DNA from: Ostreococcus lucimarinus
Taxonomy: Eukaryota
Reading direction: 5' to 3' (one strand)
Assembly (NCBI GenBank): GCA_000092065.1
Contig: CP000582.1
Length of the DNA stretch: 64,000 nt
In this document: positions 9,201-28,378 of the stretch, piece by piece
How the letters are laid out: every line of letters begins with the position of its first letter
How positions within the stretch are numbered: the first letter of the stretch is position 1
The notes under the pieces: generated by a model
Database searches by the model: none
The model's input: the letters and a program-made list of their open reading frames with translations, nothing else
Told to the model about the DNA's origin: nothing
Position numbers and translations under genes: made by a program

Positions 9201-12200
9201 ATGTCGAACACAGATGATCGCTTTGCATCTCTCATGCAAATTTCACGCGATGACCCCAGTAATTCAGATGATTACTTTTGGGTGCGCTTGAGTGCCGCGG
9301 AAAGCTCGGCGCTCAGTGTCGATCCGTTGACCCTTCAGAACGAGATACATGCGGATCATGCGATGGTCAATGGGCTTTTGCTGAATGCAGACACAAATTT
9401 CATAGAAGCACAGCGATTAAGCATCGGTTCCTGGTCCAGAAAAGAGTTGAGAACGAACACGAAGATCACGTACCAACTACCGAAATCGGATTTACTTGCA
9501 GAAAATCTCGAAGGTTATGCACGAGCGCTGTCAACACTTAGAATGGATTCGCTCACGACGTCAGGAAGACGTCACTCGAAATTGATCGTCGAAAGCCACA
9601 CTCTTATGGGCCTTTTCAAGCTAAACCCTCTCCGGGTGTTCGATTTAGTCTTTGACTCAGTCAGAGAACTTGCTGACTCCAAACACGGCGATGCTTTTGC
9701 AACATCGTTGGAATCTAGTACTCATTTAAGCGATATAATAGGGTTTCGCTTGACAAGGTGCGCCGATTTCAAACGACGACACAAAATCGCCCAGTTCGAG
9801 CTGAAAATCGCTGCTGAAAAAGAGAACACTGAAATCGGTAGACTGTATCCTTACCTGCTCCCAGTTGACCGATCTCTGTATGATAAAGCCCGAAGCTTGC
9901 AAGGTGTATCGCCCGTAGACGAGTTATACTCTGATGAGCCAAAGTTTTTGTTTCTGGAATCGACTGGAAGTAAAGCCGGTTTGTTGCCTATTCAAGCGTC
10001 GGTCGAAAGGATCATCAGACTGGGTTGTGGTACTCATGCCCTGCCGAAACTTCGGGCGAAAATGTGTGAGCAACTTAAAAAGAGAATACATGACGAGAAG
10101 GAAAAACATGACGAGAACCAGAAATTGGAATCTATTCTCCGCATCGTCTTCTTTCTTGGACCAAATGTATGCTGTGATGCAGCTCTAACGACTGAACTTC
10201 TTAAGTACTTCCAAAGAGTTGTCGCGAATAAAAGAGAGCATTTGAAATTGATCGAACCTGCTATTGCAAAGTGTTTGCTACCAGGATTACCACTTCTGAG
10301 GCCGAATCCTTTAATATGTGAATACATCTGGAAAGTTGTCCATCAACTTCCGCTTGCATCACGCGGAAAAATATACAAACACGCCATGTTTGTCACGTGT
10401 AGCACTCGACTGACTCAGATAAAGAGTTCAGCCGATAAATCAATAATGAGGATCTTACGAAGATTGTCAAATCAAAATGCAAAAGAGCTCGGCCGTAAAC
10501 TTGGTAAGCTCGCACTTTGTCACCCTTTAACGGTGACGAAAGCAGTACTGCAACAGGTTCAGGCGTATCCAAACATGATTGCACCGATCGTGCAAGCTTT
10601 GAAATACTGCACCGCACTAACTTTCGATACTTTGACCTTTTCTGTCCTCGAACATTTTACCGAGACAAAATCCAAACTCAAAGAAGATGGCCAAAACTTT
10701 TCGCTATGGTTTTCTGCTTTGTGTTCTTTTTCTGGAACATTGCTCAGACAATACCATGACATTGAACTTAATGACCTATTGCGGTACATTTTGAAAAAAT
10801 TAGACGAAGGTGAAGTGTTGGATTTATTGATATTAAAGGATCTTATATCGAAATTGACTGGTATCGAAATCTTGAAGGATGTCAGTTCGCTTGAGATTCA
10901 AAGAATGGCGGCTGGAGAAAAACTTCGAGGACTTCACGAGAACTCTACGAGCACTGACTCAAAACGACGGATGAAAGGAATTTTGCGTTTACGCACAGCA
11001 ATTGAAGGGTCGGACGCTTCGAAGAGTATGATGCTTCGATTACTATTAGCAATAGCGAAATGTCGCCAACGAATTGTTCTGAAGACGGCAAGTGCTCAAA
11101 TGAAATTTTTGGGTCAACTTTTTGATGAATGTCACGTTGTTCTATTGCAGTATATTTCGTTTCTTCACACAGCTTACAGTGTAGCAGAGCTCAAGAACTC
11201 GCTGCCAGAGATCCAATCTCTTCTGTGTGAACACCAACTTGATGCTGCTGTCGTTTTCCATTTGTATCGTCCAATTCTTCGGCAAACACTATTTTCATCT
11301 CTGGATACAAGCAGCTCCCTTGCTGAAAGTCACAATCAATACTGGAAGAAACTAAGCAGAGATGTTAAGGCAAGTCTCCATTCTGACGAGCTTTGGGGAT
11401 TGGTATCGCCAGAATTCTACCTCACTTTTTGGTCGCTCAATCTCGAGGATGTTTACGTACCCAAAGAGCTGTATGCAAAAGCGCGCGCGCGGACTGTGAA
11501 ATATGGTTCAACTGCATCGTCAACGTTTGATCAAGTTACTCAATTGCCTAGTAATGTTGTTCACGACGAACTGGCCGAGAGTTTAAACGTAGAGCTGCAA
11601 CAACTTATTGAACATGTTTCCAGAGGTACACAGTGTATTCTGAGAAAGAACTCAACCTGGGTGCAGACTGCGGATAATTTGTCTCCTGCGAGTGTCATTT
11701 TGGAAACATGTGTACTACCAAGGTGCAAAATCTCACACGCTGATGCGTTGTATTGCTCAAATTTTGTGGAGCTTGTTGGTCGAAGTGACACAGATTCCTT
11801 CAGTTTTATTCAGTATTACGATACACTATTCCGTAACGTATCATATCTCATCTATGCTTGCAGTGAATTTGAAAACAAATTTTTTGCTACTTTCTTGACG
11901 AGTGGTATGGCTCAGCTCACACGTTGGAGAGCGTGTGATGTATATAAGAGAGAGTGCTGGCAGCGCTCTGAATTTCGTAATTGCTTGAATCAGAGCAGTG
12001 TCGAAGCAAGTTTCAAAGACTACTTGAGGGTTCTGTACAAATGGGAGCATAGGTTGACGAAAGGCATCCTGCGTAATCTACAGAACGAAGACTACATGGA
12101 AGTCGCCAATTCGTTGAGCTCTCTAATAGCAATCGTTGATACATTTCCTGTCACTGAACTTTTAGGCAACTATATCTACAGCCAAGTCAAAAGAATCAGT

Positions 12201-12320
12201 ATGAGGGACAAGAGGGACGACATCAAAACAATATCGAACAGATACCTATCACTTCTGAATTTAAAACGGGCAAGTTGGAAATGTGTTCCACCCGAGGACG
12301 ACAGTGCAAGTCAGAGTTGA
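9201..12320 (+). CDS. THOC2: THO complex subunit 2 (Tho2/THOC2), intronless 1039 aa
   Basis: Collinear similarity to THOC2: ...DELWGLVSPEFYLTFWSLNLEDVYVPKELY... matches [20 protein letters not shown]; ...CVLPRCKISHADALYCSNFVELV... matches [22 protein letters not shown]; ...LTRWRACDVYKREC...YKWEHRLTKG... matches VTRWHSDRATYEKEC...VHKWHYKLTKA. Confidence 0.8.
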   Translation: MSNTDDRFASLMQISRDDPSNSDDYFWVRLSAAESSALSVDPLTLQNEIHADHAMVNGLLLNADTNFIEAQRLSIGSWSRKELRTNTKITYQLPKSDLLAENLEGYARALSTLRMDSLTTSGRRHSKLIVESHTLMGLFKLNPLRVFDLVFDSVRELADSKHGDAFATSLESSTHLSDIIGFRLTRCADFKRRHKIAQFELKIAAEKENTEIGRLYPYLLPVDRSLYDKARSLQGVSPVDELYSDEPKFLFLESTGSKAGLLPIQASVERIIRLGCGTHALPKLRAKMCEQLKKRIHDEKEKHDENQKLESILRIVFFLGPNVCCDAALTTELLKYFQRVVANKREHLKLIEPAIAKCLLPGLPLLRPNPLICEYIWKVVHQLPLASRGKIYKHAMFVTCSTRLTQIKSSADKSIMRILRRLSNQNAKELGRKLGKLALCHPLTVTKAVLQQVQAYPNMIAPIVQALKYCTALTFDTLTFSVLEHFTETKSKLKEDGQNFSLWFSALCSFSGTLLRQYHDIELNDLLRYILKKLDEGEVLDLLILKDLISKLTGIEILKDVSSLEIQRMAAGEKLRGLHENSTSTDSKRRMKGILRLRTAIEGSDASKSMMLRLLLAIAKCRQRIVLKTASAQMKFLGQLFDECHVVLLQYISFLHTAYSVAELKNSLPEIQSLLCEHQLDAAVVFHLYRPILRQTLFSSLDTSSSLAESHNQYWKKLSRDVKASLHSDELWGLVSPEFYLTFWSLNLEDVYVPKELYAKARARTVKYGSTASSTFDQVTQLPSNVVHDELAESLNVELQQLIEHVSRGTQCILRKNSTWVQTADNLSPASVILETCVLPRCKISHADALYCSNFVELVGRSDTDSFSFIQYYDTLFRNVSYLIYACSEFENKFFATFLTSGMAQLTRWRACDVYKRECWQRSEFRNCLNQSSVEASFKDYLRVLYKWEHRLTKGILRNLQNEDYMEVANSLSSLIAIVDTFPVTELLGNYIYSQVKRISMRDKRDDIKTISNRYLSLLNLKRASWKCVPPEDDSASQS

Positions 12321-12538
12321 CAGGACACGACTCGCACCAACCATATCGTGGTAATGCTGAATGATGCTAATTTTGAGCTATCGACGCAAACAACTCTAGA
12401 CCTAAATTTAGTGGTTTACCATCAAATGATCACACACGCCGACGGTACGCAACTTGCTATCGAAACCAAGGTTTCTCTCGTAAGTGTTCTCACAGCAGCG
12501 CCTCCAGCACCGTGCGCTTGCATACGTATCATATCATA

Positions 12539-12568
12539 TGATACTACCTCCATTCGGAAAGTAATGAG
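12539..12568 (+). repeat. Left terminal inverted repeat of the transposon
   Basis: TGATACTACCTCCATTCGGAAAGTAATGAG, exact reverse complement of 13928-13957. Confidence 0.7.
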
Positions 12569-13952
12569 AATGAGCCTTGTTATACGCGATGTCACAGGAT
12601 ATCGAGGCGTGCCGTACATGGCTAGAAAGCTGTTGAAATTTCCCGTACGCTGGCGCAAGTTCCCCTGTGTGAATGTGCGTAAAATCGCCGATGCATGATG
12701 ATTTCCATTTTGCTTCATTTACAAAATGATAGGAAAATGCGAAAAAAGTTGCAAAAGTTCGAGAGCGATTTAGCTAAATTTTCACCCCTCTTAGGGTTTT
12801 GTCCTTTTCTCTACGCATGTCCGCCCATCGACGAAGAAACTCTCTACGCGCGTGCTCCGCGCGTCAGCGCGCGCGCGGACGTCACTAATGGACCCGGGGT
12901 GCGACGGAGAGCTCGCACGCTAAGTTTCACATGATTTGGCCGCTTGGTGTGCTAAACCGAGGCACTGAGCGCCGAGGGAGCGACGAGGAGCGCACGCCAT
13001 CAAGTTCGAATCGCGCGCGTCGACGGACGAAGTTGGAGGTTCACGGCGACGCGCGTACGCGACCGAAGAGCGCGAGGCTGCGGAAGCGTAAGGAAACACC
13101 CTCGCGCATAGTTCCCGGCCCTCTGTTGAGTCCGTTCAAGGCTCCAAGCGGCGTGCGCGCGCGCGATGGACGGGAACTGAGCGACACGGAGAGAGCCGCT
13201 TTCGCGAAGTGCATGCACTTTGCGACGCGTTGCGGACAAGCCTCGGTAGCAGACGTATGCAAGGAATGGGGAATAAGCAAGTCTCATGGATACAAGATCT
13301 TAAATCGGTGGCGAACGGAGGAGAGCGTCCAGTCTCGACCCAGAAGTGGGCGCCCACGCGCATTGACGGAGGAGGACATGCACACGCTCGAGTGCCTGTC
13401 GGAAGAGCTCAAAGGTTACTTCACGTGGGAATCGCTGGCGAAGCGGTTCACGGAAAAAACAGGTAAGCGCGTGTCGTGTACAGCTGTGTATAGTTCTTGT
13501 AAATCAGCCGGCTGGCGCCAAGTGTGCGAGCGTTATGTACCTTGCCTCAGCGCAACAGACGTGGCGAGAAGATTGGAGCAATACCATGAATACCATGACC
13601 GCGAGAGACTTGAGAGGTGCTGGGATGTCAAAACCGCAGTCACTAAATGCATCCTCGACGCCAACGGAACGAACGATTACAAGCTACCGCACGGTATCAA
13701 GCACGAGGAACCCATTTTTGTCGATATTTTCTTAGATTCGGACGATACAGACGATCCGGTGGCGCGCACTTTGGACTACGAAGGTCTGCATGCCTCACTC
13801 CCTTCTTCTCTCCCACGATAAATTTATGTTGCAAAAGTTGCGACCCCCTCGATTTTCCTCGAGTTGTAACTCAAGAAAAAAAACGCGGAAAAAAGACCCC
13901 CTCACGATTTCACGAATCACGAACCGTCTCATTACTTTCCGAATGGAGGTAG
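12544..13952. mobile_element. Tc1/mariner/IS630-like DNA transposon remnant, about 1.41 kb, flanked by TA
   Basis: A perfect 30/30 inverted repeat: TGATACTACCTCCATTCGGAAAGTAATGAG at 12539-12568 and its exact reverse complement at 13928-13957. TA dinucleotides lie immediately outside positions 12544 and 13952. The internal ORF has a paired-like HTH transposase N-terminus (...ESVQSRPRSGRPRALTEEDMHTLECL...). No DDE domain is recognisable. Confidence 0.6.
12931..13821 (+). pseudogene. Truncated Tc1/mariner-type transposase ORF (HTH DNA-binding part only)
   Basis: WGISKSHGYKILNRWRTEESVQSRPRSGRPRALTEEDMHTLECLSEELKGYFTWESLAKRFTEKTGKRVSCTAVY matches the bipartite HTH of Tc1/IS630 transposases. The first ~90 codons are R/K-rich read-through of GC-rich sequence. 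No catalytic DD(E/D) motif was found in any frame. Confidence 0.45.
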
Positions 13953-13957
13953 TATCA
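13928..13957 (-). repeat. Right terminal inverted repeat of the transposon
   Basis: CTCATTACTTTCCGAATGGAGGTAGTATCA, exact reverse complement of 12539-12568. Confidence 0.7.
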
Positions 13958-14921
13958 GTATATATTACTTGCCACGTCCCTAATACGTGCGTGCCATCGG
14001 AAGTGCGTACGAACCCCGTTTCTCAGTTAGACTTCCAATTCCTCAAATTATATCGGCGTTTATATCATTAAATATGTCACATGTGATCGTGTACTCATCT
14101 TTAAAACTACGGTGCGTTACGGACAGGTCACGTGGCGTTTCCCCTCGTTTGTCGGACGTATACTTCGTCACTCCTGATCAATCTTTGAGAGAAATGGACG
14201 GCGTTTGGAAGCTGAGAAGTGTGTCCAAATTTGTGACGACCGACAGCCTCTGGGAAATGGGTCCACACCGATACTCGGGTTTCATACGCTACAACGTGGC
14301 TGGGGGGCTCGTTAGCGTGTGCTTTAGTCCTTACGACAAAGTAAACCATTTGACAATTTTCACTGGGCGATCTTCACAGGGGTTGATATCCTTCGTCAAG
14401 GTTGATGACTCTCCACTGTTTCACTTATCCACGCTCTAAAGATTTGTAGGTTGCGCTCGCCCTATACGTTACCTTGGTGAGTTGTTTTCGTCATAAAGTA
14501 GTTGCCTATGCTGGTAAAGTATCTGTACACGCAAGTACGTCGTTCTGATGGTCAGGAATCGCTCACGAAATTAATCTACGAAAGGCGGCGTTGTTTCACA
14601 TATTCTTCACACGTTCACTGGACAAGTATCTGCGGCTGCAGTAGAGGTTAGTCAGTTCTGATTTCTTAGCAACGCACACCAATTTTGTGAATAGGGAAAA
14701 GGGGAATTAAAAAGAACTTATGCGCTTTACAAGGTAATGACTCTTTTCATGACCGAAACCTTCATTCAAGAGAAAGTTTTCGCCTAGTATGGCCCATGTT
14801 TGAACATGTTATCCTTGAGAACACACGAAGAGAAAGAAAGACTTTGCCTTATATGGAAAAAGCTGTAAATTATCGGAATGATGAGCAAAGAGTACAAAAA
14901 CGGTACTCCAGAAGTGCACAG

Positions 14922-26168: not shown

Positions 26169-26628
26169 TGGACCAAGTCGACGCGTACTCCTTAAGCTTA
26201 AACTCCTGGAATTGGTGCACCAGTGACTAGGTCATAGACTGTACACCAATACGCGAACATGCATGAAGAGCTCTGTTTTACACCATATAATGTGGGCACT
26301 GCTCCGCGACACGACAACACTTCAGTCACCGTTTCGGATATAAGACAAAACGACGAACACGTGGACGATCGATTCCTTGTTCAATTGCAACGAAACTTCC
26401 AACTTCAACAGCACATGTTAGACATCAAGAGGCAGATGCTTCACTCGAGCGGTTGAGGCGATGGAAAAATGAAGGCGTGACGACATCAAACGGTTTGCTC
26501 AGAGGAATTGCTAGAAAAATGTATTAATAAGTCCTGATGAAATATCAATTGCCTGATAGCGGAAAAAACACCGAGAGTATTCAAAGAATAACTCCGTCGG
26601 GGGTAACCTAGGCACTAAGCGGGCCCAT

Positions 26629-28378
26629 TTAGCAACTACCTGTGATGTAGCACGGGTAGCTCTTCATCGGAGCGTAGGCACCTTGTGCGAAGAACGCCGC
26701 CGTGGAGAAGCCGACGATGACGAGGGTGATGATCCAGCCGAACACAGTTTTACCGATGATGAACCAGTTGATGCCCTTGCGGCCTTCGAGTAGGGCGACG
26801 CCGACGGTGGCACCAACTTGGCAGTGAGTGGTAGACAGCGGCCAGCCGAGACGGGATCCCATGATGATGACGCAAGCCGCACCAAGCTCGATGCAGATAC
26901 CGCGACTCGGGGTGAGCTTGGCAATCTTGGTACCGAGAGCGTGAAGAATCTTGTAGCCGTACAAGGCGAGGCCACAGACGATGCCGGCAGCGCCAAGACC
27001 GAGAATCCAATATGAATCGTCGCCCATTTCAGCTTCCTTCGAAACTTTACCGCTCTTGAAGACGACTACCATAGAGGCGAAGGGACCGATAGAGTTGGCC
27101 ACATCGTTGGCGCCGTGCGCGAACGAGTCGCAGCACGCGGTGAGGATTTGCAAGTATCGCATGCAAAGTTCAGTCTTTTCGTCAAACTTTTCGGCGTTTT
27201 CGTGGATCGCCAATACAGCCATGTCTTCGTCAAGAATGTCTTCAGCCTTGTGGGCGAGTGAAGATTCAAGATGATCTTGCAGAGCGTACCACATGCGACG
27301 CGGCGCGCCAAAGACACCGACAGGATACTCGCGCGGTTGACGGACGACCTTCTCTTCGGCCTTCTTGCCCGAACCACGCTCCGCCTTTTCGAGCTGTTGC
27401 TTCTCGAAGAGCTCATCGGTCGTCTTGAGGATGTAAGGGGTAACGAAGAAGTACGCAATAATGCCACATCCTCCGCCGATGCCGAACGCGATGGCGCACG
27501 CCGTACCGACCGGTGTGTCGTCGAGCTCAAGGAACTTGGCGCCCTTGTACACGATGAAGAAGATGTTGATGATGAGAGTGCACGCAAGCAACACTGGGAA
27601 CGCGACGGCAGTACGAGAATAAGAATGTTCGGAACGCATGACGAGAGTACGCAGGGTCACGAAGAAGACGAACGCAAAGGCGCCAGAGATGACCGGGGAC
27701 AAGAGCCAGGAGATGATGACGGCGACGACGCCTTTGACGTACGGGAATTCGTCCGCTTTCTTGGTCCAAATGACACACTCGCTACCACGCGCGACCAAAG
27801 TCATTCCAATCATACCACCAACGCACGAGTGCGTCGTGGAGACGGCCATTTCGAAGGCAGATGCGATGACGAGCCAGATGGCGACGGCAAAAATGACGCA
27901 TAGGCAGCCGTACATCAAGAGGCCGGGATCGTTCGCACCACCGGTACCGGCGAAGCATTTCTGGTTAGCAATGCCCTTGCGAATTGTCTTGACGACGTGA
28001 CCGCCCATGAACATGGCACCACAGAATTCAAAGATCGCGGCGAGGACTACAGCGTTTTTAATGGTCAACGCGCCGGACCCGACAGAGGTGGCGAACGCAT
28101 TCGCGACGTCGTTGGCACCTGTAGGTAAATACGATTGATCGCACGACGTCAGTGATGCTTCTAATACACTCCAATCGCACGTGTGCGACCAAGCCGTGTC
28201 ATTAAAGCCTATGAACGCGAAAGGTAAAAAGTGCGCGCATCGTGTGCGTACCGATGCCAAAGGCGGCGAAGAAGGCGAGGAAACTGCCGCAAACGACGAT
28301 CCATTCGAATCTCTTGGTTTCAGTAGCGCCGGCCAAAAGGTGGCGGGACGCTTGAGCGAGCGTATCCGAAGAGCTCAT
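26629..28378 (-). CDS. Inorganic phosphate transporter, PiT/PHO-4 family, 2 exons (intron about 28119-28248)
   Basis: GANDVANAFATSVGSGALT near the N-terminus and ...CCDSFAHGANDVANSIGPF... in the second half: the two PiT signature repeats. There are multiple TM segments. Exon 1 reads MSSSD...FLAFFAAFGIG, followed by a GTACGC...CTACAG intron. Confidence 0.85.

Follow-up and report, generated by a model that had tools for sequence, protein, structure and literature searches.

A probable non-autonomous IS630/Tc1/mariner transposon copy beside THOC2 in Ostreococcus lucimarinus and its algal relatives

Directly behind the THOC2 gene of the prasinophyte alga Ostreococcus lucimarinus CCE9901, an open reading frame (ORF) for 296 amino acids is enclosed by a perfect inverted repeat, and the locus raises the question of what kind of DNA has been placed there, whether it could still move, and to which family it belongs. 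We analysed it within a 64-kb stretch of contig CP000582.1 (the window, to which all positions refer unless another contig is named). A sequence-only reading of the window had proposed the remnant of a Tc1/mariner/IS630-like transposon whose ORF has kept a helix-turn-helix (HTH) domain and lost the catalytic domain. With a probability of about 0.9, a cut-and-paste transposon of the IS630/Tc1/mariner superfamily has left a copy here that is internally deleted and hence non-autonomous. The case is cleanly resolved, with exact limits, an empty-site allele, a mapped deletion junction, and sister copies elsewhere.

Limits of the element and its empty site

A repeat search of the window returned two arms at 12539-12569 and 13927-13957, which are 31 nt long and 100% complementary and form the sole long repeat, inverted or direct, in the window. 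The 25-mer core of the repeat occurs exactly twice, against 0.00 occurrences expected from 100 shuffles. Short inverted repeats are common in general, and nothing else speaks for the idea that the repeat is a chance or structural palindrome and not mobile DNA. This idea can be regarded as refuted: no match would be expected by chance, the same ends are found at other loci, the enclosed ORF has homology to transposases, and an allele without the element exists. When a 20-mer of the terminal inverted repeat (TIR) was scanned against metagenome contigs, 20 loci were obtained. The same TIR sequence terminates copies at other insertion sites, with at least four distinct left-end and six distinct right-end insertion contexts. 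Nine of the ten distinct copy ends, whose flanks differ, have TA directly outside CTACCTCC, as have both ends of the window copy (Table 1).

The empty site was found among contigs that had been fetched for carrying an identical 1039-aa THOC2 protein. One of them, the environmental allele L039, is free of the element and reads ...CATATGA-TA-TCAGTATAT... with a single TA. It corresponds to window 12500-12543 joined to 13955-14006, with two single-nucleotide polymorphisms in 96 nt. Because of this single TA, the element comprises 12544-13952 (1409 bp), its TIRs are 26 bp long, and the TA has been duplicated. The outer TGA and TCA belong to palindromic target DNA (TGA-TA-TCA), and the inverted repeat is thus longer than the true TIR. 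Of the 30-bp perfect inverted repeats described by the sequence-only reading, the perfect complementarity stands but the length does not, while the limits of the element and the TA duplication that it had proposed agree with L039 and with the copy ends. L039 also settles that the segment is an insertion rather than an ancestral, unique sequence. The orthologous loci of O. tauri and of a sister clade had been tried as clean empty sites as well, but both are rearranged, and the empty site was taken from the conspecific haplotype.

The GC content inside the element reaches 0.64 compared to a window mean of 0.459 (SD 0.036), which makes the element the strongest GC outlier of the window. Its interior base composition is foreign to the surrounding DNA. 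The only other stretch with a GC content of at least 0.56 (26601-28100; maximum 0.59, window mean 0.46) is the gene of a PHO4 phosphate transporter (ORF 26629-28260, minus strand).

The truncated transposase and its intact relatives

The 296-aa ORF has already been deposited in GenBank as "transposase-like protein" (XP_001416162.1 / ABO94455.1). Its residues 101-148 match the Pfam model HTH_29 with 29.4 bits (curated cutoff 28.1), which bears out the paired-like HTH proposed before, and weaker matches were obtained for HTH_23, HTH_32 (residues 121-187), and HTH_Tnp_Tc3_2 (residues 165-216). Comparison with intact relatives reveals what the ORF has lost. Over residues 1-216 of both, the ORF and the intact 522-aa protein P0335 are 91% identical, and ORF residues 215-296 correspond to P0335 residues 441-522 with 90% identity. 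In a tblastn search with the intact 522-aa protein, P0335 residues 217-440 had no match anywhere in the window. At the DNA level, the element is colinear with a 2033-bp copy (L016, 345-2377, with a 504-aa ORF) save for one in-frame gap of 624 bp, whose edges share TGGAG. The absence of a DD(E/D) domain and the internal deletion that had been read from the sequence are thus both confirmed, given that the residues are unmatched, that the gap is clean, and that the intact relatives carry the catalytic triad. The L016 copy itself misses 57 bp relative to other copies. The complete element would therefore be about 2.09 kb long, and the window copy lacks 624 bp compared to L016 and about 680 bp compared to this complete form. 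None of the recovered copies is complete in the sense of having both TIRs, both flanks, and an intact 522-aa ORF. P0022 and P0037 are other, independent deletion derivatives, whose breakpoints differ from those of the window copy.

It could be argued that the copy is autonomous after all and that its catalytic domain is hidden by introns, by frameshifts, or on the other strand, because short, unusual introns abound in the genes of Ostreococcus chromosome 2 (PMC2367439). However, the tblastn search covered the whole window without finding anything for residues 217-440, the DNA is colinear with the longer copy apart from the clean gap, and none of the remaining ORFs inside the element has a Pfam match. 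This possibility is therefore refuted as well.

The first 82 residues of the ORF (12931-13176; ..SSSNRARRRTKLEVHG..SPFKAP..) form a basic N-terminal extension that is in frame and still recognisable in P0337 and P0339 at 49-59% identity. A downstream methionine that some gene callers use as start is a leucine (CTG) in the window copy. The conservation of the extension suggests that it is probably translated and perhaps represents a nuclear localisation region.

Table 1. Positions of the element and its parts in the window
Feature	Position	Strand	Evidence
Left copy of the TA target-site duplication	12542..12543	.	TA in 9/10 distinct copy ends; single TA in L039
Left TIR, 26 bp, CTACCTCCATTCGGAAAGTAATGAGA	12544..12569	+	Perfect inverted repeat; also ends copies elsewhere
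Whole element, 1409 bp, probable internally deleted non-autonomous copy	12544..13952	+	Empty site in L039; colinearity with the L016 copy; GC content
296-aa ORF, truncated transposase	12931..13821	+	Exact match to XP_001416162.1 / ABO94455.1; alignment to P0335
Bipartite (paired-like) HTH and YVPCL linker, ORF residues ~101-216	13231..13578	+	Pfam; hhalign of YVPCL with WVPHEL of Mos1
Deletion junction with 5-bp microhomology TGGAG	13574..13578	+	DNA comparison of window and L016; protein join RRLE/QYHEYH
Retained C-terminal tail (..RCWDVKTAVTKCILDANGTNDYKLPHG..LPSSLPR)	13579..13818	+	Aligns with the C-terminus of full-length relatives
Right TIR, 26 bp	13927..13952	-	Inverted-repeat search; copy ends
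Right copy of the TA target-site duplication	13953..13954	.	Copy ends; empty site in L039

A protein search identified 77 relatives of the window ORF. The full-length members P0016, P0028, and P0042 contain DIDEKW, VQMDGARPH, and QPANSPDTNLNDLCFF between the HTH region and a C-terminal tail of the window type, and P0016 and P0028 match HTH_Tnp_Tc3_2 with 34.4 and 39.1 bits, respectively (cutoff 31.5). A profile search against 1.84 billion representative proteins, with clusters defined at 50% identity, resulted in 2993 clusters at E <=1e-3 and 162 at E <=1e-30. A later profile search added intact ORFs of 522/523 aa that share their N-terminus with the window ORF, namely P0335 (which stands for a cluster of 212 sequences), P0336, and P0338. 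For an alignment of the family, 50 diverse members from metagenomes and algal transcriptomes were used. All 50 have a D/D/D triad, and D167, E168, D281, H286, Q316, S320, P321, N324, D327, and G391 are invariant. G391 lies in the retained tail, in which N393, P398, and H399 are conserved in at least 90% of the members. The distance between the second and the third aspartate is 45 residues in the Ostreococcus group and ranges from 38 to 60 over the 50 members. In an hhalign comparison of the family profile with Mos1, whose sequence was verified against PDB 3HOS, the probability is 98.3% (E = 2.5e-14), and the three aspartates are aligned to D156, D249, and D284 of Mos1. The Pfam model DDE_3 is reached in the distant family member P0306. 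Because of the triad alignment with Mos1 and this DDE_3 match, membership of the family in the IS630/Tc1/mariner superfamily is well supported. The superfamily is marked by a TA duplication, short TIRs around a single transposase gene of about 1.3-2.5 kb, and a bipartite HTH, all of which are seen in this family. Its RNase-H-like DD(E/D) domain is present in the family but not in the window copy.

Based on these relationships, the intact 522-aa transposase would bind the TIRs through its HTH domains, excise the element, and reinsert it at TA. The deletion has removed the whole catalytic core. What remains is the basic region at the N-terminus, followed by the bipartite HTH, the linker, and the C-terminal tail. 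Having intact ends but no core, the window copy would be movable only in trans, and wherever an intact copy is present it can probably be mobilised in this way. The deletion itself probably arose by interrupted gap repair or by microhomology-mediated joining. Internally deleted class II elements usually originate from interrupted or microhomology-mediated repair.

Copies in wild populations and the THOC2 neighbourhood

Several independent assemblies (L025/L031, L026, L033, and L034) share the 1409-bp copy together with its insertion site. Together with the empty site in L039 this means that the insertion is polymorphic among wild haplotypes. Near-identical copies are found at at least four other sites. 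For example, a copy with a different left flank (L009, GCA_014466335.1) is 99.1% identical to the window copy over 1036 bp, and right-end fragments of 190-380 bp at three further sites are 96.3-99.5% identical. Older, diverged copies with 84-93% identity are also present, some with decayed ends or non-TA flanks. In addition, many contigs break off at the TIR or shortly within it, which is expected of a repeat in an assembly. The near-identical copies, the contig breaks at the TIR, and the empty-site allele taken together indicate recent transposition in O. lucimarinus-like populations. Further copies, which the sequence-only reading had asked to be sought, thus do exist at other sites, and so do intact ORFs with the catalytic triad. 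The TIR was not found in the first protein-derived contigs (L001-L004), which are short or diverged. Viral contigs contained neither an exact 20-nt TIR match nor a tblastn-confirmed relative of the transposase, and a prasinovirus vector is not supported.

Two contigs that were considered as full-length copies at the window site in wild strains were rejected. L016 (1-2400) and L032 (7800-10400) both show the left flank of the window followed by the 2033-bp version, but in the right flank they agree neither with the window nor with one another. On the right, L032 has the flank of the L010/L021 site, and over its right part the element is only 97-98.7% identical. Both contigs are probably assembly chimeras across the repeat, or else ectopic recombinants between copies. 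Another candidate for a full-length copy, in a 94-kb ENA contig (L041, 2837-4687), misses both termini. It encodes an intact 522-aa transposase (P0336), is 89% identical to the element at the DNA level, and adjoins a JmjC gene, but 223 bp at the start and 13 bp at the end of the element are missing, and with them the TIRs. This locus could be an immobile source of transposase or a candidate for domestication.

Some of the evidence weighs against the assignment to a deleted, trans-mobilisable mariner-type copy. The Pfam models DDE_3 and Transposase_1 stay below threshold on the Ostreococcus proteins, of which the full-length ones match HTH domains alone, and the AlphaFold model reaches only moderate confidence (mean pLDDT 62.7). 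The catalytic domain is tied to mariner only by the 50-sequence profile against Mos1 and by a fold search; PDB sequence searches with single sequences and small profiles gave nothing meaningful. Within CCE9901 itself, mobilisation in trans is only a possibility. Finally, L016 and L032 are probably chimeric and thus neither place nor date the deletion.

The truncated ORF could also be a functional HTH protein in its own right, either a repressor of transposition that competes for the TIRs or poisons transposase dimers, or a domesticated DNA-binding factor of the host. The deletion is in frame and leaves an ORF that is uninterrupted for 296 aa, and both HTH motifs, the linker, and the conserved C-terminal motif are kept. 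The same protein or a one-residue variant of it occurs in many environmental assemblies (a cluster of 55), and the N-terminal basic stretch is conserved across subfamilies at 49-59% identity. However, one in three deletions is in frame by chance, and the near-identity of the copies reflects their youth and not demonstrated selection. Intact TIRs and a polymorphic insertion with an empty allele are unlike a fixed domesticated gene, and other deletion derivatives with other breakpoints exist. We therefore consider a functional protein to be quite improbable. Should the 296-aa protein be made, it is a matter of speculation that it could bind the TIRs but not cut them and thereby dampen transposition.

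The element is surrounded by large ORFs of housekeeping function, which encode a YchF/Obg-like ATPase, THOC2, IMP dehydrogenase, coatomer gamma, PHO4, two aminoacyl-tRNA synthetases, a histone deacetylase, an SNF2 protein, and a separase. A second transposase was not found among the large ORFs of the window. The whole window has a GC content of about 46%, and the THOC2 orthologue of O. tauri is located on chromosome 2. Ostreococcus chromosome 2 is known as "big outlier" and has a low-GC, intron-rich, transposon-rich region (PMC2367439; PMC5082852; bioRxiv 10.1101/2025.04.21.649811). Judged by GC content and synteny, the window would lie in this low-GC, transposon-rich part of chromosome 2. The claim that the element is the sole mobile signature in a single-copy housekeeping locus is thus correct in that the large ORFs contain no other transposase, but the territory is probably not an ordinary one.

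The THOC2 ORF (Pfam THOC2_N, Thoc2, and Tho2) spans 9201-12320, so that its stop codon lies 223 bp before the element, in accordance with the distance of about 220 bp given before. It might be supposed that the element matters mainly as a part of THOC2, by contributing to its 3' untranslated region or providing polyadenylation or termination signals, because it follows the stop codon so closely and is on the same strand as the gene. This holds in particular for the L025/L031 haplotype (a 360-kb JGI contig), which contains the same 1409-bp element but lacks 203 bp of the flank (window 12339-12541). Here, only 20 nt (18 nt plus TA) separate the THOC2 stop codon from the left TIR (L025 8632-8634 / L031 8138-8139), and the transcript must end within the element or run into it. 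However, the element-free allele L039 encodes an identical THOC2 protein, which means that the gene is independent of the element, and in the sister clade a different gene directly follows THOC2. A role mainly as a part of THOC2 is therefore unlikely. Any function of the element in THOC2 3' end formation is speculative, although the sequence of the L025/L031 haplotype makes it plausible there. The deletion in this haplotype ends exactly at the transposon end, which suggests an adjacent deletion induced by the transposase.

The surroundings of THOC2 also differ between species. THOC2 proteins of O. lucimarinus and O. tauri are only 43% identical, and identity to another environmental clade is 41%, which is very fast evolution for a housekeeping protein (window 9201-12320 versus P0327). 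In the sister species O. tauri, two other transposase-like genes are found just downstream of THOC2 on chromosome 2 (L027, 62-77 kb), namely one for an 877-aa protein that weakly matches DDE_1 and one for a 573-aa protein in which Plant_tran/DDE_Tnp_4 (Harbinger-type) domains are present. The THOC2 neighbourhood of O. tauri has thus collected different transposons. In the related environmental clade (L028-L030) the order is IMP dehydrogenase ... YchF ... THOC2, directly followed by an ABC1 gene. One eukaryotic contig of this group is part of GCA_002718195.1, with a protein named 'Euryarchaeota archaeon', and this metagenome-assembled genome appears to be mis-binned. Just to the right of the element, several metagenome assemblies annotate a gene on a 150-aa ORF (13987-14439) that has no Pfam match. 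In the sister clade, the region upstream of THOC2 contains a gene of 150 aa that faintly matches ARMC6_N.

Affinity to plant mariners

The remaining question is to which of the named systems the family belongs. The profile of 50 sequences retrieved named proteins of the land plants Salvia miltiorrhiza, S. splendens, and Silene latifolia with E-values of 1e-89 to 1e-55. Angiosperm proteins score 206-317 bits against the family profile compared to 83-84 bits for classical mariners and 73-112 bits for Tc1/IS630-like proteins. The Salvia and Silene proteins carry IHIDEKWFY, KIMFxCAVARP, FDGKLGIFPF, IQQDNAKPH, QPANSPDTNVNDLGFF, and GGNNYKIPH. Common to them and the algal family are a D-D-D triad and the motifs [IV]DEKWF, KVMF/GL-AVARP, FDGKIG, RNSK, QQDNA+PH, QPANSPDxNxxDLxFF, and GxNNYKxPH. 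In a small neighbour-joining tree with few outgroups (364 columns, 300 bootstraps), a bootstrap support of 100% sets plant and algal sequences apart from Mos1-type mariners and Tc1-like sequences. The angiosperm clade (100%) and an algal/marine clade (96%) stand beside each other, the latter not within the former. The algal/marine clade comprises Ostreococcus, Pyramimonas CCMP1952, and MMETSP and metagenome sequences. By these sequence comparisons, the nearest named relatives of the window element are the DD39D mariner-like ("PlantMar") transposases of angiosperms.

[quoted passage not shown] Stowaway MITEs begin with the same start as Ppmar2 from bamboo. The TIR start of the window element, TA followed by CTACCTCC, is like that of Ppmar2, TA followed by CTCCCTCC, in 7/8 bases, and over a longer start (CTACCTCCATTC versus CTCCCTCCGTCC, each after TA) 9/12 bases are identical, a likeness that is suggestive (PMC6696609). 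The sequence-only reading had taken a TIR start without CAGT as a sign of an uncharacterised family. This argument does not hold because CTACCTCC resembles the start of Ppmar2 and the transposase groups next to plant DD39D proteins.

There are also clear differences from the plant elements. The DD39D signature defines the plant mariner-like elements (PMC4054914; PMC7325037), and the Salvia protein P0360 has a spacing of 39 (counted from the sequence) compared to 45 in Ostreococcus. At the N-terminus, the algal family matches HTH_29 and HTH_Tnp_Tc3_2 whereas the plant proteins match the DUF7769 model. The host is a prasinophyte alga, while PlantMar has been reported from angiosperms and a few oomycetes only and the same survey contains no Tc1/mariner element from Chlorophyta (Dupeyron et al. 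2020, PMC7325037). Given the spacing of 45 and the position beside the angiosperm clade, the family is regarded as related to plant mariner-like elements and as working like them, yet it is not filed as a member of PlantMar.

Classical mariners (Mos1, Hsmar1/SETMAR; DD34D) share the TA duplication, the bipartite HTH, and the D-D-D triad. WVPHEL of Mos1 is aligned to the linker YVPCL here and SPDLAPSD to SPDTNLND, and the fold is the same according to the fold search and hhalign. However, the spacing is 34 against 45, the identity is about 19-21%, and the TIR sequence is different. The models Transposase_1 and HTH_48 did not match the Ostreococcus proteins at E-values up to 10, while the true mariner P0418 matches both. 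The window element resembles other internally deleted class II derivatives in its short-microhomology deletion, the loss of the catalytic part, the two intact ends, and the several breakpoints per family. It is not a Stowaway MITE. Those are shorter than about 500 bp, non-coding, and of high copy number, whereas the element has 1409 bp, a 296-aa ORF, and a handful of distinct sites. Tc1/Mariner elements have also been noted in the low-GC 'BOC1' region of Mamiellales, among them one of about 1 kb beside a housekeeping gene of O. tauri, which have the host order, the kind of genomic compartment, and the superfamily label in common with the window element. The available part of that report gives automated EDTA calls and does not describe TIRs, a triad, plant affinity, or insertion polymorphism (bioRxiv 10.1101/2025.04.21.649811). 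A literature search for DD45D and similar names found nothing relevant to the family. In the searchable literature, a sister group of plant mariners in algae, with a DD45D triad, is apparently undescribed.

Taken alone, the window copy is one dead transposon copy in a compartment known to collect transposons, and it had already been labelled transposase-like. Its copies and alleles, however, indicate recent movement of a Tc1/mariner family in wild populations of a species with one of the most compact genomes among free-living eukaryotes. The novelty lies at the level of the family, with green-algal representatives beside the plant DD39D mariners that the published survey of the superfamily had missed. 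The intact 522-aa transposase and the 26-bp TIRs could provide a candidate genetic tool for Mamiellales. In the broadest view, the element would belong to a large undescribed algal/marine sister lineage of PlantMar that continues to transpose in wild Ostreococcus and extends to Pyramimonas and to many metagenomes of marine protists; the odds for and against this view are about even. If it is true, plant-type mariners would be ancient in the green lineage and not acquired horizontally by angiosperms, and both the published restriction of PlantMar to angiosperms and oomycetes and the supposed lack of Tc1/mariner elements in Chlorophyta would need revision.

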